From contig OZ219750.1 of NCBI GenBank assembly GCA_964291315.2, positions 576,001 to 640,000 on the forward strand: a DNA stretch of 64,000 nucleotides, written 5' to 3'. Positions 4,183 to 13,216 of this stretch are shown here, one piece after another. A program made the position numbers and the translations under genes. The DNA comes from Candidatus Poribacteria bacterium (lineage in GTDB: Bacteria > Poribacteria > WGA-4E > WGA-3G). Numbering within the stretch: the first letter of the stretch is position 1; each line of letters opens with the position of its first letter. Below the pieces are notes generated by a model that did no database searches, was not told the DNA's origin, and saw only the letters and a list, made by a program, of their open reading frames with translations.

Positions 4183-4211
4183 TACATTTGGGATCCACTA
4201 AGTTTTCATAT

Positions 4212-4607
4212 TAGGTAAGGGATCGAAACCCGGCAGCAGCTTTAGTCTCGGTGTGCCCGCTAGATAACATCCGCTGATACCGATTTCAGGTGTGCTTGTT
4301 AGGGTTTGAAAGTGGAACTTCAGAAGAAACCTAGTAACCCAACACGCCGGACATTCGTTCTATTTCTGGAGAACCGTGCTATTGACAATCAAGATGGAGC
4401 TTCTCAGTCTATAATCGATGCAAGCGTCTTAGGTTCTTGGATAGCCTATTGTCAATGCGGTAGACGCGTTGTGCTCTGCGGACTATTACCGGCTTTCCGA
4501 TCAGTTGGGTCCAAATAAGGCACAGTTCCGAGCTCCACAGTTGTCTCGGGAAGTATTAGGATTTTGAGGAGCAGGAAACCGCCTATGTTAATCTGATTTT
4601 TCAGATT
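4212..4607 (+). ncRNA. Candidate large structured non-coding RNA, family not recognised
   Basis: Five consecutive non-overlapping stems inside a closing stem; G-U pairs favour the + strand; no credible ORF. Confidence 0.45.
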
Positions 4608-4642
4608 TAGTCAAAATGAGATTATCTTTGATGCATTTTCCC

Positions 4643-4671
4643 TTGACAGTTTAAGTGTTTTATAGTAAAAT
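4643..4671 (+). promoter_or_regulatory. Sigma70-type promoter P1 of the surface-protein operon
   Basis: TTGACA-17 nt-TAAAAT. Confidence 0.65.
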
Positions 4672-4737
4672 GTCAGGTAGCTTATAGGTTTCTACGTGAA
4701 CGTTCGAAAATCTCCAGAATAGGATTGAAATTTTGAT

Positions 4738-4766
4738 TTGACATATTTTAATGGTTGTGGTATCAT
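4738..4766 (+). promoter_or_regulatory. Sigma70-type promoter P2 with extended -10
   Basis: TTGACA-17 nt-TATCAT, with TG one base upstream of the -10. Confidence 0.7.
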
Positions 4767-4770
4767 ATAT

Positions 4771-5218
4771 AAGCAGACTGCAGTTTAATCGATAGAGATA
4801 CTAAGATGATATACCGATGCGGCGGGAGCAAATATTCACCGATTGCATAAAAACATCACGTAATTGCAAGTCAGTTTGGTTCAGAACATTTGTCCTAATG
4901 ACTAGATATGTCTGCTACGTAGCGATTAATTAAATGGTTGCTTAATTTTGTTACCTTTGTTAGAATAAATAAAAAATTCCCGCAATGTCGAGCATAAAAG
5001 TTAAGTCTTGTTTTCCACTTACGTTTGACTTATGTTTTATGTGCTACTGACTCTATCCGAGGGATACATCGGTACCGGGGAATTTCAAGTTCGTTGGTAG
5101 AATGTTATTTGGATGGGCAGACATCTACCCCGATCGCTTTTGTCGTATTCGCGCTTACCCATCTAAAACTCAGTACTTAGTCTCGCTTGCGCGTAGACTT
5201 AATGAGGAGGATAAGTTA
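4771..5218 (+). promoter_or_regulatory. Long structured 5' leader
   Basis: Complementary pairs 4812-4819/5067-5074, 4822-4827/4978-4983, hairpins 4991-5045 and 5108-5167; AGGAGG RBS before ATG 5219. Confidence 0.5.
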
Positions 5219-8200
5219 ATGAAAAAACGAACACTCGTTTGTTTTTTGATTTTTACTTTGTGTGTTTTTTATAGTTCAATTCCGAACGCTGTTTTCGGGC
5301 AGGAAGTCTCTCTCGCCCAGCAAGTGTTTGACAAGCACAGCGAGACGCTCCAGCGTGAAGATATTCAGGCGGTTTTGCCCGATGTTCTTGAGGGGCTGAA
5401 AGCACCAAACATTCAGGCCCTTTTGACCCCCCAAACCATTGCGATCGTTGTCGCAACTCCGGATCTCCTAACACAGTTTGTTCCAGATATAGATCAGCAA
5501 TTTGTGGCGCTTTTGAAAGAGGATGTTGATCTCCAAGGGCTGCTCAGCGATCCGCAAGTTCAAGAATTGCTCCAAGATCCAGCAGCAATTGACGAACTTG
5601 CAGGATTATTGGGTGTTGGTGCTGAACCTCCAGTGGTGGAGCCCCCAGTAGTGGAGCCTCCAGTGGTAGAGCCCCCAGTGGTGGAGCCCCCGGTAGTGGA
5701 GCCTCCAGTGGTAGAGCCCCCAGTAACAGTCCCAACTATAGATCCTTTTGAGCCAATAATGCCCACGAATGATTTCATTTTGGGTAAATCAAGGCTTGGC
5801 GGTCTCTCTCTGAATGCTGCTTCTGGAAAAGGTCTTATTGAAGAGATTATTCGAGCATCTGGGCTGCCTTTTGAAGCGAGCACTCTGGTAGATGCAATTC
5901 TTGACCTTGTTCCGCAAGGGATTTTCCCGAAGAAGCAGATGCGCCAGATTTTGATGTCCAACCGTCTCTCCATTTTTGAACAAGAAGCGAAGCAATTGGA
6001 TTTCGAGAATTTCGGAAATGCCATAATGCCGAACTTTGCTGATTTTGCCTATTTAGAAGCCAGCAGCAAACATGTAACAAGAGATGGTTTACAGGTTTAT
6101 ATGCGTGTACCCGCGAAGGTTGGAGGTGTTACGTTTACGCTCTCAGGTGGGAAAACAGTTCCGGGTACCGAAGTTACCATGGCTGAATTTCAAAGCGATA
6201 CCATTTCTTATACTTTCCAGTTAGATGAAACGCTTGCTGCTACCAACTTACCTGCATGGCCCAGTTTAGGTGCTCAACTGTTTTCGAGCGTTACGCTCCG
6301 GTATTCAAATACTGGCCCACAGGGAGACTACATAGCTGTTGATATGCAGCCGACAACTGGGAAAAATGGCGTTGTTTGGGAATCAGAAATAGGCATTCCA
6401 CCTAAAGGGAGTACCTATTACTATTTTGAAGTGATGCTCACTGAGCCGGTATCCTTCACGACGTTGGACCGTGAAGCAATTGCAGCTATGGATCCAACTA
6501 CTGTAAGCTTAGCGGATATTCTCAGTGCCACGAAAGAATACACAATTGAAGGTTGGGCGATGCCAGATCCAAAGAACCTTCAGATGGTCAATCGTGGTAT
6601 TGTCGAGGCGCTGTTTACCCCTGATTTAACACGTGTGCTTGATGATGTGCTGACATCACCCAACGCCGCAAACATAATCCTAAAGGTAAACGCGGGGCAG
6701 CAACTCAAGATAAACGAATTTTTGAGTGTTGCTACGCAAAAGCAACGGAATAGGATTACGAGTATAATCTCCCGTAATGCAAACAGAATCACAACTAAAT
6801 TTGAAACTGAATTTGATCCGATGTTGGCTTCTGTTTTTACTGTGCCACGTGTTAATATGCAAACAGAATCCCTTTGGATCGCACAAATTGAAGATATCGC
6901 TGATGGCAGCTACTATCTAGCGGCTGTTGTTCATGATGCCGATGGTAACCCGCTTGATCAGGTCCAAGAGATGGTCACTTTTGATACGACTGCTCCGGAG
7001 GCTCAGATTCAGATTATGGATGGCGGGAACACTGCAGGATATACAAATGCAGAAGGTGTCTATGTTGCTACTGCTCCTAATGCTGGTCCTGCAGCTCTCA
7101 ACATCATGGGTATGTCGAAGGGGAATGACGTAGGTGCAGGCAGGGGATACCTTTTTTATCAAGAGATTGCCTTGGATGCAGATGGAATTCCTCAAAGCAC
7201 ATGGATGCCATTAACGGTTGAGTCCACAATCTTGACATCTAGGATTTGGTCGTCTGTTCTGGAAAGATTCCCGCAAGAACTTGCTTCATTTGTGAAGATG
7301 AATTTCCCTGAACTCGTCGGTGGTTTGGACGATACAGCGATAGCAGGACTCTTAGGTAGTCTGACTCCTGAATCGCTCTTGGCCCTACTCTCGCCGGACT
7401 TAATCCAACAGTTTGCAAATCCATTTCTCAAGAGTTTAGAGCCTTTCATAGGACGCTTTCAACTCTCTGACTCTCAGAGCCAAGCGATAGTTGATGCTTT
7501 GGGTGCTACGGTGGATATCGTTGACCATCTGTTGCCAGTAACCTTTGAACCCTCTGAGCATGTGACCATGCCCATCCAGGGTGAGCATATGTCTCTTATG
7601 ATAGGAGACTACGGGATTCGAGCAATGGGGATTGATATGCTCTTCAATCTCGGGGTCTATGCTGAACCTGCCCGGCTCAGGATTGTCGTGCCGGAAACTG
7701 ATGCAGCCAGCGTTACAGCTGTCAATATCGGCGACCAGAATGGCGATGGTGATGCTAATGACCCTTATGAAAACGGTATGATCTTCGCGGATACTACGGA
7801 CGATGTAATGTTGACCGTCACTGTGGACAATCGTACTGTGCATCCTGCTTCCATCAGTGTGCAATATATGGATGCAAACGGGGCATGGCAGATGATCGGT
7901 GAAGCTCGTGAGCTAGCTGAAAATGAAGAAGTATCTATGTATCAGATCAGCTGGAATGTTACCGATTTTGATGCCCTCGTAGCTGCAAGTGATACGGTTA
8001 TGGTTCGGGCCGTGGCAACCAATGCCCTTCAACTTACGAGCACGTCAGAGCCGTTCGCAATAAAACTGGATGCTGACGTTTACCCTGCTCCTTTTGACGT
8101 AATAGCGCTTGCACTTGATGCTGAGTCCATTACGAAGACAAATCCAGATAGCGGGGGCCCCCAAGGCACGGTCACAATCAGTGGATATACGCCGCAACGG

Positions 8201-11185
8201 ACAGATCCAAGAATCACTTCTTTCCGAGTGAAGATTGGGGACGAAGTATTTACAACCAGCGAAGGCACCGTCATTACCTCGGAAGAATTTGAGAGGCTTG
8301 AAGACACGCCTGACGTTAGTGACGATCTCCTTTATCTGGCAGCTAGAGCTGTCGCAGAGGGGGGAGCCACAGAATCTCCGATCTATCGGGAAGACTATCC
8401 ACCGTATCTAATGAAATGGACGGTTACGGTAGATACGACGCGTCTTGACGACACTATCACCGCGGATAGCTCCGCAGCTCGCGATGCCTCCAAGGACGAA
8501 AATAAGCATGTTGTGACTGCATCCACAATGACAGATAGTGGCGAAATGCCGGCACCTGAGAATGTCAAGAGTCACTTGTCGGTTGATAATGTTGACGATG
8601 TTGGGCCAGTGGGTCCCACAAACATTACCGCTGTCACCAATGTTGCTGATGGGGTTGATTCTCAACTTGTTGAAGCAGATGAGGACGGAAGTTATATGGT
8701 CGGTGGGATTGTTGATGAGGCGGTTCCATCTCCGATGGATATGCTTACTATTGAACCGACGGCCGATGCTAAAACCTACGCATCTGTGAAATTAATCCAA
8801 ACCGATGCTGATGGGAACGAAACTGTGACAGATAGTGAAGCCGGCGATTTGAACGTTACAGTTGACGTTGGGATGCTTGAAAATGGAACATATATGTTCC
8901 ATGCTCTCGCTGTTGACGAATTTGGTAATGTGCAAACCGATGAGTCACCGAAAACTGTTGTACATGTGATGAACTTCCGCCTCTCGGATATCAGTGATTT
9001 AATGATCACAGCGGTTGATGGGCTGGAGGTAGCGGAAACGCCTGTTGAACCTATAGCGCTTCGGGATTCGCTCACAGCTGGTTTCGTTGTTGCTAACGGC
9101 TCATTAGCTACAGAACATCTGAGTGCTAGCATTAACGGGAATGCGGTCGCTAGTGAAAGTACAGAAGATCCAGAGATGACCTTCTCACTTTCGATGATGG
9201 ACCTTTCAGCAATGTCGGACGGTATGTATACGCTAGAAGGTATGGTCAACCGATGGAATGGTTCAGTGTCATTCCCGTTAGCTATGATTAACCTTGACAG
9301 TACGGGTCCGATGGTTAAGATTGAAACGCCTTTGGAAGATCATACGATTGACAGTTTACCGACTGTTTATGCGACCTATGAAGATGGTACGGGCGTTGGT
9401 GTTGACAGCACAGGCAAAGAGGGCTTGGCTTGGGCAACAACGGAACTTGCCGATGGACCAACCGTTATGTTGGTGCGTATACTGCCTGAGCAAGGTGACC
9501 AAGATATTATGATTGACCAGATGGCTATTGAAGCTGATAAATCCACCTTGGTTTACACCCGTGATGAACAACTTCCCGGTGGTGCCTACCGCGCAACTGT
9601 CAAAGTTGCTGATGTTCTCGGTAACATCGGGGAAGCCTCTGTTGAATTCGCTATCAGCGGCACTTTTCCAGCCGTTGCGATTCACTCACCAACTTCGGGG
9701 CAGACCGTCAAGGACACCACCCCACTGATTAGCGGTGAGATCTCGGGGGCAGGCGATCTTGAAATAACCATCTTTACTGTTGACGGTGTGGATGTTACAC
9801 CTGAGGTAGACGGGAACCGATTCTCTTATACGCCTGTTGCAGCGTTAAGCGGTGGGGCACACACTGTTGTCGTTGAAGTCACCGATGGTGACGGTCGAAC
9901 AGCACAGACATCCACCTCTTTCACAGTGGCGACAGACACAACTCCACCTGTTATCTCTGAAGTCGCTCCATCTGGAGTCATCAAAGGTGATAGCTGGATA
10001 ACAATTTCAGCGGTTGTTTCTGATGAACAATCCAGTATTGTAAGTGTGAAGTTTGCTATTGACGATAAACCGTCCCGCTCCGTTCCGCTTGCTCAAATTG
10101 CGGAAGGACGCGCTCAAATTGCGGAAAGCTTCACAGCAGGTGCACATACCGTAACTGTCATTGCAATTAGTGCGGGTGGCACGACACAACATTCGTGGAC
10201 TTTCACGTTAGAAGTCGATAATGTCGCACCTACGATTACCTCAATCACTCCGACAGGAACTATTCGTGCTGGACTCCCGGTAATCTCCGCGAGTGCCAAC
10301 GATGAATCTGGGGTGGATAAGATGGGTATTGTTGTGTTTGACAGCGACGGTGAAGAGGTAAAAGGCGATACCGAAGATGATGGTGAGGATGATGTTGAAG
10401 GTATCACACGCTTGGACTTCATTCCTGAGGAACCCCTTGATGAGGGAACTTACACGATTGAGGTTCGCGCGACTGATACAATCGGTAACTCTGCTACGGC
10501 AAAAAGTACTTTTTCAATTGACTTCGATACTGCTGCTCCGGTTATCACAATGTCATCGCCGCAAAATGAGGCACGTCTGACCGAACGGCGCCCTCAGATT
10601 TCGATAACCTACGCTGATGCTGAATCAGGGATAGATGTCGATTCTATCCGCTTTGTTCTAGATGACAAGCTGATTAATGTCAAACCGAATCAGAAGACGG
10701 CATCACAGTTGATATACACTCCAGATATCGATCTCGCTTTCGGGAAACATAGCGTCAAACTTGAGGTTTCTGACATGGCACATAAAGAGGGCAATGTCTC
10801 TGAAAAGAGCAGCGGCGCTCGTGAAGCAAACATGGCAGTCCATGAGTTTACATTCTATGTTGAGAGTGAGGAAGGTCCGGCGTTGGCCTCGCGTCCGATA
10901 AATGCACCTAACCCGTTCAGAGAGAACACGCGTATTTCCTTCACGTTGACTCGACAATCTACGGTGAGTATTGTCATTTACGATATGACGCTGCGACCTG
11001 TCCGAGTCTTGGTTGATAACGAAGTATGGGATGCAGGTGAGTACATTGGTACGAACGCAATCGGTTGGGACGGAACTAGTTCTTCTGGCGAGGATTTGGC
11101 TCGAGGTGTCTACTTCTGTCAAATTATGGTAGCGGACGGTTTTGAACCGGAGTATGTACTTCTCAAACTTGCACTGACACGCTAA
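5219..11185 (+). CDS. Giant secreted/surface protein (~1988 aa) with bacterial Ig-like repeats and a C-terminal FlgD-Ig/T9SS-like sorting domain
   Basis: AGGAGG RBS, Sec signal MKKRTLV...AVFG, repeated DTTAP/DTTPP Ig boundaries, C-terminal NAPNPF..TRISFTL..IYD..WDG..G..LARGVYF. Confidence 0.8.
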   Translation: MKKRTLVCFLIFTLCVFYSSIPNAVFGQEVSLAQQVFDKHSETLQREDIQAVLPDVLEGLKAPNIQALLTPQTIAIVVATPDLLTQFVPDIDQQFVALLKEDVDLQGLLSDPQVQELLQDPAAIDELAGLLGVGAEPPVVEPPVVEPPVVEPPVVEPPVVEPPVVEPPVTVPTIDPFEPIMPTNDFILGKSRLGGLSLNAASGKGLIEEIIRASGLPFEASTLVDAILDLVPQGIFPKKQMRQILMSNRLSIFEQEAKQLDFENFGNAIMPNFADFAYLEASSKHVTRDGLQVYMRVPAKVGGVTFTLSGGKTVPGTEVTMAEFQSDTISYTFQLDETLAATNLPAWPSLGAQLFSSVTLRYSNTGPQGDYIAVDMQPTTGKNGVVWESEIGIPPKGSTYYYFEVMLTEPVSFTTLDREAIAAMDPTTVSLADILSATKEYTIEGWAMPDPKNLQMVNRGIVEALFTPDLTRVLDDVLTSPNAANIILKVNAGQQLKINEFLSVATQKQRNRITSIISRNANRITTKFETEFDPMLASVFTVPRVNMQTESLWIAQIEDIADGSYYLAAVVHDADGNPLDQVQEMVTFDTTAPEAQIQIMDGGNTAGYTNAEGVYVATAPNAGPAALNIMGMSKGNDVGAGRGYLFYQEIALDADGIPQSTWMPLTVESTILTSRIWSSVLERFPQELASFVKMNFPELVGGLDDTAIAGLLGSLTPESLLALLSPDLIQQFANPFLKSLEPFIGRFQLSDSQSQAIVDALGATVDIVDHLLPVTFEPSEHVTMPIQGEHMSLMIGDYGIRAMGIDMLFNLGVYAEPARLRIVVPETDAASVTAVNIGDQNGDGDANDPYENGMIFADTTDDVMLTVTVDNRTVHPASISVQYMDANGAWQMIGEARELAENEEVSMYQISWNVTDFDALVAASDTVMVRAVATNALQLTSTSEPFAIKLDADVYPAPFDVIALALDAESITKTNPDSGGPQGTVTISGYTPQRTDPRITSFRVKIGDEVFTTSEGTVITSEEFERLEDTPDVSDDLLYLAARAVAEGGATESPIYREDYPPYLMKWTVTVDTTRLDDTITADSSAARDASKDENKHVVTASTMTDSGEMPAPENVKSHLSVDNVDDVGPVGPTNITAVTNVADGVDSQLVEADEDGSYMVGGIVDEAVPSPMDMLTIEPTADAKTYASVKLIQTDADGNETVTDSEAGDLNVTVDVGMLENGTYMFHALAVDEFGNVQTDESPKTVVHVMNFRLSDISDLMITAVDGLEVAETPVEPIALRDSLTAGFVVANGSLATEHLSASINGNAVASESTEDPEMTFSLSMMDLSAMSDGMYTLEGMVNRWNGSVSFPLAMINLDSTGPMVKIETPLEDHTIDSLPTVYATYEDGTGVGVDSTGKEGLAWATTELADGPTVMLVRILPEQGDQDIMIDQMAIEADKSTLVYTRDEQLPGGAYRATVKVADVLGNIGEASVEFAISGTFPAVAIHSPTSGQTVKDTTPLISGEISGAGDLEITIFTVDGVDVTPEVDGNRFSYTPVAALSGGAHTVVVEVTDGDGRTAQTSTSFTVATDTTPPVISEVAPSGVIKGDSWITISAVVSDEQSSIVSVKFAIDDKPSRSVPLAQIAEGRAQIAESFTAGAHTVTVIAISAGGTTQHSWTFTLEVDNVAPTITSITPTGTIRAGLPVISASANDESGVDKMGIVVFDSDGEEVKGDTEDDGEDDVEGITRLDFIPEEPLDEGTYTIEVRATDTIGNSATAKSTFSIDFDTAAPVITMSSPQNEARLTERRPQISITYADAESGIDVDSIRFVLDDKLINVKPNQKTASQLIYTPDIDLAFGKHSVKLEVSDMAHKEGNVSEKSSGAREANMAVHEFTFYVESEEGPALASRPINAPNPFRENTRISFTLTRQSTVSIVIYDMTLRPVRVLVDNEVWDAGEYIGTNAIGWDGTSSSGEDLARGVYFCQIMVADGFEPEYVLLKLALTR
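5624..5728 (+). repeat. Coding tandem repeat, 7 x 15 nt, (EPPVV)6-EPPVT
   Basis: Read directly; units differ mainly at synonymous positions. Confidence 0.97.
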
Positions 11186-11203
11186 GTAAATGGCAGTCTG
11201 CAT

Positions 11204-11235
11204 GTCGGGAATTGGACGCTTGTCTAGTTCCCGAT
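11204..11235 (+). promoter_or_regulatory. Intercistronic stem-loop without U-tract
   Basis: GTCGGGAATTGGAC-gcttt-GTCTAGTTCCCGAT. Confidence 0.65.
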
Positions 11236-11257
11236 GTGGACACTGAAGGAGGATATA

Positions 11258-12256
11258 ATGTTAATGACAGAACAAATCGCTAAATGGGTTTCCAAAAAGG
11301 GCCCGAAATTGTTATGCGGTTTACTACCCCTTTTCTTTTTTATCCTAGCGGTGTCACCGGCCAGTTTTGCGGGAGTGGATGCCATGCCACATCTGCGGCT
11401 TGGTGCCGGTGCACGCTCGATCGGCTTAGCTGGTGCATTCACAGCAATTGCTGATGATGCTACTGCAACCGTTTGGAACCCAGCAGGACTCGGCTCCGCA
11501 GCGGATTTAAGCCTCAACCTTTCAACACAGCAGCTTGATTTTGATAGGAACCATAACTTCATTGCATTGACGAAAGCTCTTGGTTCATCGGGGGCCATCG
11601 GCCTCGCTGTCACAAACGCGGGTGTCAGTGGCATCCAGCAGTATGACGAAAATGAACGCTACGGTGGAGAATTCGACTACAGTGCGAATGCTTACTCTCT
11701 CTCTTATGGCATCGGGTTCGGAAATTTCGGTATCGGTCTTACAGCCCGCCTGTTAACAGACAGCTTCGGGGGATCCGATGTTGAAAATCAAAGTGGTTTT
11801 GGGGGGCTAGATGTCGGAATCATGGGACATGCCCTGCATATCGATGTCGGTGAAGAAAATGTGCCAACCTTCCACTATGGGCTTGTTGCGAAGTACCTCG
11901 GGGCCTCCCTTGGTGATGACACTGTCCCCATGGTTATTAATCTCGGCTTAGCCTACAACCTCTATATGGGTAATGTTGTCACATTTGCCGCAGATATTGA
12001 GCAAGAACTCGTAAATCTTGACCAAAGTGCCACGAGTTTGAAGCTCGGTGCTGAATATACTATTCTCACTTACAAATCTACTGCTTTATCCATCCGTGGC
12101 GGGGTCAGAGCATCGCGCGATACCCAAAACCTCTTCGGTGGTTTTGGTGTCAACATCGGTGGGCTGCAGATTGATTATGCTATCCAAGATGGTATGGCGA
12201 GTGAAATCAACGGGGTCGGATCAACTCACTTTGCTTCTCTCTCTTATAGGTATTAA
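11258..12256 (+). CDS. PorV/PorQ-like (FadL-type) outer-membrane beta-barrel protein
   Basis: Signal peptide, LRLGAGARSIGLAGAFTAIADDATATVWNPAGL signature, amphipathic strands, C-terminal SLSYRY barrel signal. Confidence 0.8.
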   Translation: MLMTEQIAKWVSKKGPKLLCGLLPLFFFILAVSPASFAGVDAMPHLRLGAGARSIGLAGAFTAIADDATATVWNPAGLGSAADLSLNLSTQQLDFDRNHNFIALTKALGSSGAIGLAVTNAGVSGIQQYDENERYGGEFDYSANAYSLSYGIGFGNFGIGLTARLLTDSFGGSDVENQSGFGGLDVGIMGHALHIDVGEENVPTFHYGLVAKYLGASLGDDTVPMVINLGLAYNLYMGNVVTFAADIEQELVNLDQSATSLKLGAEYTILTYKSTALSIRGGVRASRDTQNLFGGFGVNIGGLQIDYAIQDGMASEINGVGSTHFASLSYRY

Positions 12257-12268
12257 AGGAGGAAATTA

Positions 12269-13129
12269 ATGAAAATGATAAGAGGCACGCTGAAGTTAGC
12301 ACTGATTCTGTACATCTGCGCAGCACTCAGTGGTGTTTATGTGTTATCCGCGTCGGCGAAAATCACGCCGCATGATGGCGATGACAATACTATGCTCATC
12401 ACAATTGTAAAGGGAGACACACTTTGGGATCTCTGCCAACAACATCTCAAGGATCCACTTCGCTGGCGTGAGCTGAGTAAGTATAACGACTTCACCAACC
12501 CGCACCTCATCTATCCGGGCGAACATCTGCGAATTCCTGTCGCTATGGTGAAAGAACTCGTTGAAGTGGCTGAGGAAGATCTCGCTAGTTCCCAGGAAGA
12601 GCTTGAGAGATTAAAAGTGGAATTAGCTGAATCGGAAGCAACGCGGGATAAACTAGAATCAGAAATTAGTGGGCTCAACGAGAGTATGGGACAACTCAAG
12701 GCGCAGCTTAAGGCTCTTGAGGACAGCCTGAAATCACAAGAGCAGCTCATCGATGCAGTTGGTCAATCGGGCGAGGTAATCGCCTTGAGCTTCAAAGAAG
12801 TCCTTACAGCAAATAAAGATGCTATCCTTGATGCGATTTCTGGTCTTGACGAACGTCTTAAAGCATTGGGGAAAATGCATGAAAAACGGAAAATGGAAGC
12901 AGAAAAGACACTCGCACGTGTCGAGACTATCCAGACGCATGTGAAAACGCTTCTAACCTCCGTTGAAAACAACCAAAAAGCGATCAGGGAAGTCAAGATG
13001 ATCCTTGAAAATGCCAAGGGTGTGCACGAGGAACTTTCCTCATCCAAACGTGGGTGGGTGTTCCTGACAACTGTCGCAGCTGGCATTGGGTTGTTTGCTA
13101 TCAATGCTATCGGTGGGCGAGGCGAGTAA
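12269..13129 (+). CDS. LysM-domain coiled-coil protein with C-terminal membrane anchor
   Basis: Signal peptide, IVKGDTLWDL...NPHLIYPGEHLRIP LysM, long heptad region, hydrophobic C-terminal WVFLTTVAAGIGLFAINAIG. Confidence 0.85.
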   Translation: MKMIRGTLKLALILYICAALSGVYVLSASAKITPHDGDDNTMLITIVKGDTLWDLCQQHLKDPLRWRELSKYNDFTNPHLIYPGEHLRIPVAMVKELVEVAEEDLASSQEELERLKVELAESEATRDKLESEISGLNESMGQLKAQLKALEDSLKSQEQLIDAVGQSGEVIALSFKEVLTANKDAILDAISGLDERLKALGKMHEKRKMEAEKTLARVETIQTHVKTLLTSVENNQKAIREVKMILENAKGVHEELSSSKRGWVFLTTVAAGIGLFAINAIGGRGE

Positions 13130-13148
13130 TCGAAACGCATCACCTTTT

Positions 13149-13187
13149 AGGCAGGGAAGGTGTTAAATCGCCTCCCTGCTTTTTTTA
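13149..13187 (+). terminator. Intrinsic terminator closing the three-gene operon
   Basis: GCAGGGAAGGTG...CGCCTCCCTGC followed by a T-run. Confidence 0.85.
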
Positions 13188-13216
13188 TAGCGTTTGCTAT
13201 TTTAAAGGCTCTGAAT

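Follow-up and report, generated by a model that had tools for sequence, protein, structure and literature searches.

A phylum-wide three-gene operon of Poribacteria that may anchor a giant fibre through its own PorV/PorQ-family barrel

How the sponge-symbiont phylum Poribacteria exports giant surface proteins and holds them at the cell is the question raised by this locus. Many poribacterial repeat proteins with a Por sorting domain were described by Kamke et al. 2014 (PMC3909097), and in the passages of that paper dealing with them no structural Por genes were found and the pathway "remains to be revealed". We analysed a stretch of 64,000 nucleotides (the window; contig OZ219750.1, positions 576,001 to 640,000) from the genome of a Candidatus Poribacteria bacterium. 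In it, three co-oriented genes encode a giant cargo protein rich in immunoglobulin-like (Ig-like) domains and ending in a type IX secretion system (T9SS) C-terminal domain (CTD), a barrel of the PorV/PorQ family, and a LysM/helical-rod protein. The best reading of this trio is a cognate-barrel anchoring system for T9SS cargo. In its full form, which we favour with modest confidence, the trio is a phylum-wide, highly expressed operon for the dedicated cargo-barrel anchoring of a giant fibre at the wall, served by an SprA-like/PorU-like module without the known motor.

The three genes occupied positions 5219-13129 of the forward strand, and a GGAGG ribosome-binding site (RBS) lay ahead of each of them (Table 1). 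The source genome was 4.4 Mb in size, in 4 contigs, and 95.2% complete; Poribacteria is a candidate phylum outside any superphylum in the NCBI listing. Database proteins nearly identical to the barrel and the LysM protein are likewise assigned to Candidatus Poribacteria. A first-pass annotation made from the letters of the window had proposed most of this arrangement: three co-oriented genes with strong RBSs, a cargo with a Sec signal and a PNPF...WDG...GVYF CTD, a PorV-like barrel, a third product with LysM, a long coiled coil and a C-terminal transmembrane helix, a stem-loop after the cargo (11204-11235) and a terminator closing the unit (13149-13187). All of these features were recovered in the present analysis, and their coordinates proved exact or off by a few bases.

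Table 1. Positions of the trio genes, their domains and the associated RNA and promoter features in the window (ORF, open reading frame; aa, amino acids; AF2, AlphaFold2)
Feature	Position	Strand	Details
Cargo gene, 1988 aa	5219-11185	+	ORF 5102-11185, likely ATG 5219 after GAGGAGG
Ig-like matches in cargo (CopC-like, Big_7, Big_13, Big_3_3)	9503-10645, aa 1429-1809	+	Pfam/NCBIfam
T9SS type A CTD of cargo	10907-11182, aa 1897-1988	+	PF18962, TIGR04183, alignment of orthologues
Intercistronic RNA hairpin	11194-11245, core stem 11201-11238	+	17 pairs, ends just before barrel RBS
Barrel gene, 332 aa	11258-12256	+	ORF 11234-12256, start 11258 after GGAGG; alternative start 11234 = 340 aa
LysM/helical-rod/C-terminal-helix protein, 286 aa	12269-13129	+	Start after AAGGAGG; Pfam, AF2
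Intrinsic terminator	13149-13188	+	GC-rich stem 13149-13181, then T7
Two sigma-70-like promoter candidates	4643-4671, 4738-4766	+	Consensus scan, each 11 of 12 positions

The cargo consisted of a hydrophobic leader, a helical module (aa 28-135), Pro-rich repeats (DNA 5630-5724, a 15-nt unit in 6.3 copies), an extended Ig-like region and the type A CTD. The leader, read from the residues and not by a predictor, is apparently of the Sec type. About 1250 aa after the Pro-rich array had no family match in Pfam or NCBIfam, and an atlas search of this middle region returned solely Ig-like leads, with scores <0.9. Closer to the C-terminus the Ig-like families were clear, with Pfam scores of 87.5 bits for Big_13, 53 bits for Big_3_3 and 47.8 bits for Big_7. 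The orthologous cargo proteins of 20 fetched loci ranged from 1955 to 4383 aa where the ORF was complete.

Two observations concern the front end of the cargo and its gene. Over its first 135 aa (window 5219-5623), the cargo shared 82% identity with the N-terminal end of a trypsin-like protease of 715 aa (G000:C4:141119-143266, locus L160), which also ends in a type A CTD. Two further proteins had weaker copies of the module, and a CTD match was seen in one of the two. The leader and helical module thus form a shared N-terminal module. In five loci of more distant families (L052, L054, L060, L061 and L064), a second large CTD-ending ORF was located directly upstream of the cargo gene; it was 882 aa long when complete and reached up to 3034 aa when cut by the locus end.

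The assignment of the CTD was supported by several lines of evidence. The domain passed the curated cut-offs of both families, PF18962 (Por_Secre_tail, aa 1897-1969) with 29.8 bits against 27 and TIGR04183 with 24.3 bits against 23, the matches lying within aa 1897-1973. The PNPF, WDG and GVYFCQ motifs were kept across 21 aligned orthologues. A profile built from the orthologous CTDs matched those of PorU (6za2_A, E 1.1e-9) and PG93 (5m11_A, E 9.8e-4), and a Pfam scan gave no match of the cargo to CHU_C. The CTD was also the best-conserved part of the cargo: distant families were 39-54% identical to the window CTD (29% in the most distant pair), whereas long passenger stretches in the same taxa showed about 25-33% identity. 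This difference fits a conserved partner of the domain. The Cys in GVYFCQI (about 11117-11137) was present in no fewer than 90% of the 21 CTD orthologues; one other CTD that we compared (locus L161, 6906-7517) had Tyr at this position, and no conserved cysteine was seen in the alignment of the mature barrel.

The barrel carried a signal peptide and a GAGARS...DDATATVWNPAGL signature, and its length of 332 aa was that of nearly all listed orthologues. The NCBIfam model NF033709 (PorV_fam) aligned over its full length (3-324 of 326) with 82 bits and E 5.7e-23, the cut-off being 90. The scores against the narrower equivalog models were far under their cut-offs, at 20.7 against 250 bits for PorV (NF033710) and 38.9 against 220 for PorQ (NF033711), with 40.4 bits for PorV2. 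PorP/SprF (PF11751) had no match to the barrel, and its best score in the genome, 18.4 bits, was elsewhere. An AF2 model based on a 21-sequence alignment (predicted local distance difference test score, pLDDT, 75.6) had 14 strands and a short helical N-terminal segment. Foldseek placed PorV first (8gl6_F, E 1.2e-12, TMq 0.72; then 6h3i_F), and the next best were FadL and TodX at E 1.5e-7 or weaker and TMq 0.53-0.60, with FadL chains at 0.55-0.60 and the top-ranked one at 0.58. A profile search of the PDB with the orthologues gave the same ranking, the E-value being 1.6e-12 for PorV and 0.92 for TodX. The PorV shuttle of Flavobacterium johnsoniae (PDB 6H3I, 8GL6) was thus the best solved match to both the model and the profile. 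It differs from the trio barrel in that the two share 16% identity and the latter, with 13 other family members in its genome, goes with a single cargo gene and a LysM partner. Some trio parts are already named by the NCBI pipeline; among the barrel orthologues one is called 'PorV/PorQ family protein', another 'UPF0164 family protein', and others are hypothetical. Metagenomes also contained 17 longer relatives of the barrel, several with TPR tails and one with a LysM domain (aa 536-583) before the PorV barrel. These fused forms support a probable general link of such barrels to periplasmic or wall-binding modules.

The third protein had a leader (aa 1-30) with an A-S-A|K site, followed by a LysM domain (PF01476, aa 44-90) that passed with 32.4 bits against a cut-off of 20.9 and was kept in 21 of 21 aligned orthologues. 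In the AF2 model (pLDDT 75.2), two long helices (92-165 and 169-251) formed the rod, and a hydrophobic helix (258-281) was followed by five residues. The mean Kyte-Doolittle value of this last helix was 1.94, hydrophobic enough for the inner membrane. Lys or Arg stood just before it, on its N-terminal, periplasmic side, in all 95 distinct orthologues, and only 1-6 residues followed it. This placement of charges and the short tail run counter to the usual charge rule for an inner-membrane anchor with its N-terminus outside. The helix may reside in either the inner or the outer membrane, with points on both sides. No paralogue of the protein was present in the source genome. Foldseek with the model gave no match at E ≤ 0.001, and the weaker ones listed were generic helical hairpins (Smc arms, EmrA, PcsB). 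A LysM profile search of 1.84 billion representatives returned 43,817 matches at E ≤ 1e-3, mostly LysM or coiled-coil proteins, including ten weaker full-length look-alikes with no taxon assigned.

The trio was highly conserved within the phylum. The LysM gene was present in 146 of 151 genomes, or 127 of the 131 of high quality. All 20 fetched loci, which were chosen to cover eight families, had cargo, barrel and LysM gene in this order on one strand. A search of genome contigs with the barrel alignment added 80 loci, none of which names another phylum. Seventy-three passed the strict order test; five failed solely through an over-long barrel start set by the ORF caller, and two were cut by a contig end. 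The order was kept in all 78 further loci having upstream DNA. The conserved cargo-barrel pair with a LysM coiled-coil partner, as first annotated, was thus confirmed, and the concern that the trio might not be syntenic elsewhere was removed. The gap between barrel and LysM gene was 6-76 nt, mostly 13 nt. The barrel orthologues formed a separate group: a profile of 21 sequences (A1) gave 338-483 bits to 20 of 20 fetched orthologues, at most 130 bits to the 13 other PorV-family ORFs of the genome, and 104-168 bits to the best barrels of the five genomes lacking the LysM gene. Since these best barrels fall outside the orthologue group, barrel and LysM gene are both absent from the same 5 of 151 genomes, and are present or absent together.

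Expression of trio orthologues inside sponges can be read from Supplementary Data S1 of Jahn 2016 (PMC5087111), in which Xestospongia metatranscriptomes were mapped on the single-amplified genome (SAG) 3G. Contig_55.56 of this SAG has three consecutive genes of 6897, 999 and 864 nt, listed there as 2265145750 (row 125; pfam13750, labelled 'TonB'), 2265145751 (row 85; hypothetical) and 2265145752 (row 106; pfam01476). Their mean FPKM values (fragments per kilobase of transcript per million mapped reads) were 1329, 1691 and 1510, which correspond to 1.70, 2.17 and 1.94 times housekeeping. Our locus L094 (WGA-3G contig 55) has genes as long as those in that table, with 999 nt for the barrel, 864 nt for LysM and 594 nt for the gene that follows; on account of these equal lengths we took the rows to be the trio orthologues. 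With an operon that is core to the phylum and well expressed inside sponges, the fibre is likely a main contact surface of a dominant sponge symbiont with its host.

The functional interpretation was guided by known cargo-barrel systems. According to PMC10202324, type B cargo genes and PorP/SprF barrels are usually clustered, the barrels are proposed as cargo anchors, and PG_1035 of Porphyromonas gingivalis additionally needs the peptidoglycan-binding PorE. The trio resembles SprB-SprF of F. johnsoniae and PG_1035-PorP-PorE of P. gingivalis in that the gene of a large surface protein lies beside its own PorV-like barrel (PMC10202324). With the latter it also shares the functional layout of cargo, barrel and wall binder. 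The parts differ in each case. The trio CTD is of type A, with CHU_C unmatched; the barrel has its match in PorV_fam rather than PorP_SprF; the place of PorE, an OmpA_C-type lipoprotein, is taken by a LysM-rod-helix protein as the wall binder; and the host belongs to a non-Bacteroidota phylum, with no GldL, GldM or GldN found in a search that had no positive control. Because the trio repeats the roles of cargo, cognate barrel and wall binder with different parts, we read it as a dedicated anchoring cassette.

The attachment complex of P. gingivalis provides a second comparison. As stated in PMC10202324, PorU and PorZ keep their CTDs, which are bound to PorV and PorQ, and cognate PorV-like barrels may shield a CTD from cleavage. 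The trio is like PorZ-PorQ and PorU-PorV in joining a type A CTD protein with a PorV/PorQ-family barrel, and its CTD may be retained as well; the likeness to PorU-PorV extends to the source genome, where a PorU-like gene is directly followed by a PorV-family barrel. Unlike PorQ and PorV, the trio barrel is no equivalog by the scores given above, and unlike PorZ and PorU, the cargo is a giant Ig-repeat fibre and no machinery component.

In the anchoring cassette, the 1988-aa Ig-repeat protein would pass the inner membrane by Sec and then the outer one, using a distant SprA-like translocon whose gene lies elsewhere in the genome. Its own PorV/PorQ-family barrel would then receive and hold it via the type A CTD, and the base formed by barrel and fibre would be fixed to peptidoglycan by the LysM/helical-rod protein. 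The conserved hairpin between the first two genes would act on the mRNA via processing or stability, with no strong terminator there. We infer the secretion route, the CTD-barrel binding, the retention of the CTD and the barrel-LysM contact. Together with its genome context, the locus names candidates for the poribacterial Por pathway: an SprA-like protein, PorU-like peptidases, and PorV-like barrels paired with CTD genes. In the literature on Poribacteria with T9SS, Por secretion and Ig-like/LysM proteins, we found no paper describing the operon or a poribacterial T9SS-like module.

These candidates are encoded away from the trio. A 2242-aa SprA-like ORF (G000:C4:564019-570747) matched TIGR04189 in four colinear stretches with 134.9 bits (E 1.8e-39), the cut-off being 200, and 150 of the 151 poribacterial genomes had the protein, with identities of 46-84%. 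An atlas search placed 28 of its 30 named hits in the SprA_N set (0.96-0.97), which is a lead and not a test. Three PorU-like proteins of 1750-2137 aa scored 400, 331 and 381 bits, under the model's cut-off of 420, and all three had a Peptidase_C25 domain (288-296 bits) and a FlgD_ig-type/CTD-like C-terminus; one of their genes is the one directly followed by a PorV-family barrel. PorV_fam had 15 matches in 14 ORFs, the trio barrel and 13 others, four of the matches over the cut-off. Besides the cargo, TIGR04183 passed its cut-off at 35 other places in the genome. The first-pass view of a T9SS-related locus in a non-Bacteroidota lineage was borne out. The motor genes gave a different picture. 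GldL, GldM and GldN had no match in the genome at E ≤ 0.01, and GldM none in the 151 genomes of the phylum, in searches run with no positive control, so their sensitivity and reach are unproven. The GldK model had 124 matches, all to its FGE-sulfatase part, and just multi-domain ORFs passed, by summed scores. A 1203-aa triple FGE-sulfatase protein (G000:C4:559954-563565, locus L072, 4955-8566), with 344 bits to GldK against a cut-off of 350, was encoded directly upstream of the SprA-like gene and may have a PorK-like role.

Several points weigh against the anchoring cassette as outlined. The SprA assignment is weak: it falls under the TIGR04189 cut-off, the protein has no Pfam family at E ≤ 1e-5, and solved SprA was matched neither by phmmer nor, even at E ≤ 10, by a profile of ten orthologues. 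As GldL, GldM and GldN were not found, it is in doubt whether a T9SS-like translocon could work. The barrel misses the NCBIfam cut-off by 8 bits, and no Pfam family, PF19572 (PorV) included, matched it at E ≤ 0.01. AF2 packs the two rod helices as a hairpin with pLDDT near 90, which brings LysM and the C-terminal helix to the same end and makes a poor fit to a simple membrane-to-wall spacer. The expression values come from an orthologue in another species and not from the source genome, and an mRNA ratio of about 1:1:1 does not establish protein stoichiometry.

A more specific version takes the missing motor literally. There the outer-membrane type IX-like pathway would be motor-less (SprA-like, PorU-like and many PorV-like proteins; no GldKLMN), and the fibre would be moored on a cargo-specific barrel joined to the LysM rod, whose helix would lie in the outer membrane. 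We consider this version tentative. If the pathway does work without GldLM, a type IX translocon could run without the known motor.

The outer-membrane placement of the helix is shared by an alternative that shifts the emphasis from secretion to the envelope. Barrel and LysM protein would form a split outer-membrane-to-peptidoglycan strut with the C-terminal helix in the outer membrane; the cargo would be a moored sheath or S-layer-like coat, and secretion specificity would be secondary. The model is Omp-alpha of Thermotoga, a protein with an SLH domain, a coiled coil of 316 aa and a hydrophobic C-terminal end; its gene adjoins a porin gene, and the protein stays associated with the porin (PMC3387000). 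Like Omp-alpha (OmpA1) beside the porin OmpB (PMC3387000), the third protein has a leader, a wall-binding domain, a helical rod and a hydrophobic C-terminus in this order, with a barrel gene adjacent; Deinococcus SlpA is a fused form of such a connector (PMC9388160). The basic residues before the helix and the short tail, unusual for an inner-membrane stop-transfer anchor, favour this view, as do the expression above housekeeping and the core status of the trio and a second barrel of the genome that pairs with wall-active domains (LysM-M23, SLT). The likeness to Omp-alpha and SlpA is solely architectural, however, with no sequence or fold relation found. LysM takes the place of SLH, for which Pfam and NCBIfam scans of the trio proteins had no match, and the rod of about 160 aa, a predicted hairpin, lacks a significant structural match. 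Moreover, the hydrophobicity of the helix would suit the inner membrane, 4 OmpA_C-type domains in the genome could tether the outer membrane, and the partner barrel belongs to the T9SS cargo-handling PorV family and is no porin. We regard the strut as unlikely to be the primary role. A LysM strut would be a new variant among the diderm ways of tying the outer membrane to the wall.

The second barrel just mentioned was found at locus L161. There, the gene of a protein that combines two LysM domains with an M23 peptidase domain (G000:C3:218589-220755; L161 2090-4256) has an overlapping 471-aa ORF after it, whose translation shows a PorV signature at the N-terminus, then a middle of barrel length, and ends in an SLT-like lytic transglycosylase motif. 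The pair is a second link of a PorV-type barrel to wall-active domains.

It may also be asked whether the barrel is dedicated to its neighbour at all. It might be a general PorV shuttle for all poribacterial CTD cargo, located beside its major substrate, since it is single-copy, phylum-wide and highly expressed, and the PorV shuttle is its best solved structural match. The paralogues make this improbable. One of them (G000:C4:2067218-2068342) fitted the PorV equivalog far better than the trio barrel, with 98.5 bits over nearly the full length, and another fitted the PorQ equivalog best, with 135 bits. We tried the 1026-aa protein upstream of this PorQ-like paralogue as a PorZ-like cargo and rejected it, since it proved to be a restriction enzyme of Type ISP. 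Of the 14 PorV-family ORFs, five adjoined a co-oriented CTD gene, one of these PorU-like. The five genomes without the trio barrel kept SprA-like genes and CTD-plus-barrel pairs, with a CTD ORF directly upstream in 7 of 8 best-barrel loci. This frequent adjacency indicates that an own barrel for a CTD protein is a general habit of the phylum; what sets the trio pair apart is its LysM partner. Dedication of the barrel to its cargo is therefore supported over a general role, as far as such comparisons of family scores and neighbours suggest.

The first-pass annotation had gone further and suggested a self-contained, possibly minimal secretion/anchoring system; in the strong form of this idea, the cargo would pass through the barrel. 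The trio is indeed compact and has its own terminator, the window has no SprA, GldK, GldL, GldM or GldN gene (no core T9SS gene, PorK/L/M/N or SprA, was seen among the scanned neighbours, as that annotation had noted), and the genome searches for GldL, GldM and GldN described above were empty. The idea did not hold up and is very improbable: judging from known PorV/FadL structures, a plugged 14-strand barrel would be far too narrow for a folded Ig chain of 1988 aa, the SprA-like giant protein is nearly universal in the phylum, and the SprA-like, PorU-like and 13 other PorV-family ORFs and 35 CTD matches of the genome lie elsewhere, the latter without any such trio. Nor did a complete canonical T9SS, the other explanation that the annotation had considered, emerge, in view of the unmatched GldL, GldM and GldN. 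A FadL/UPF0164-type role for the barrel, as a channel taking up hydrophobic compounds with no functional relation to its neighbours, is scarcely credible despite the 'UPF0164 family protein' name of some orthologues and the FadL and TodX chains among the next-best structural matches, since PorV was nearer in both sequence and fold and the adjacency to the CTD and LysM genes is invariant. The FadL kinship that the annotation had named as a possible refutation of its reading thus falls away.

The anchoring reading also includes the hairpin between cargo and barrel genes. It folded with -32.1 kcal/mol (z -5.45), and none of 200 shuffles, a control made for the window's hairpin, folded as well. 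The 75 nt after the cargo stop reached -27 kcal/mol or stronger in 95 of 99 loci, the exceptions being L055, L056, L060 and L063, and stem sequences in distant families were unrelated. For covariation we aligned 42 distinct sequences of the window's own family, chosen from 77. In this alignment 96.8% of the cells paired, and compensatory changes were seen in 9 of 12 pairs (48 cells). Among 500 shuffles, none came up to the real alignment in pairing, in covariation score or in the count of compensatory cells, and a single one attained nine compensatory pairs; slid registers of the alignment dropped the paired cells to 29-64%. Rfam had no family for the hairpin, its two sub-threshold matches lying elsewhere. 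A terminator role was considered and rejected. There is no U-run 3' of the hairpin, and orthologues of the downstream genes are expressed no less than the cargo, so we read the hairpin as an mRNA processing or stability element.

The terminator behind the LysM gene was of the usual kind, folding with -27.1 kcal/mol (z -4.46), and its inner stem was also found by a separate scan. At the other end of the operon, about 1 kb of non-coding DNA (4183-5218) precedes the cargo gene; Rfam had no match in it. It contains both promoter-like sites, about 450-570 nt before the cargo start codon, which would give a long leader if used. The promoter candidates are a weak pattern match, with 22 such sites observed against 15.1 expected. 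The neighbours of the trio were unrelated housekeeping genes, including haem synthesis genes and genes for a multihaem cytochrome, a CDP-alcohol transferase and TauE. Finally, locus L161 (G000:C3) has at 6106-6543 a 145-aa ORF that has a leader, carries NGRIDG-type repeats and shows a hydrophobic helix at the C-terminus, and this small rod-plus-helix ORF lies near a 203-aa CTD protein.

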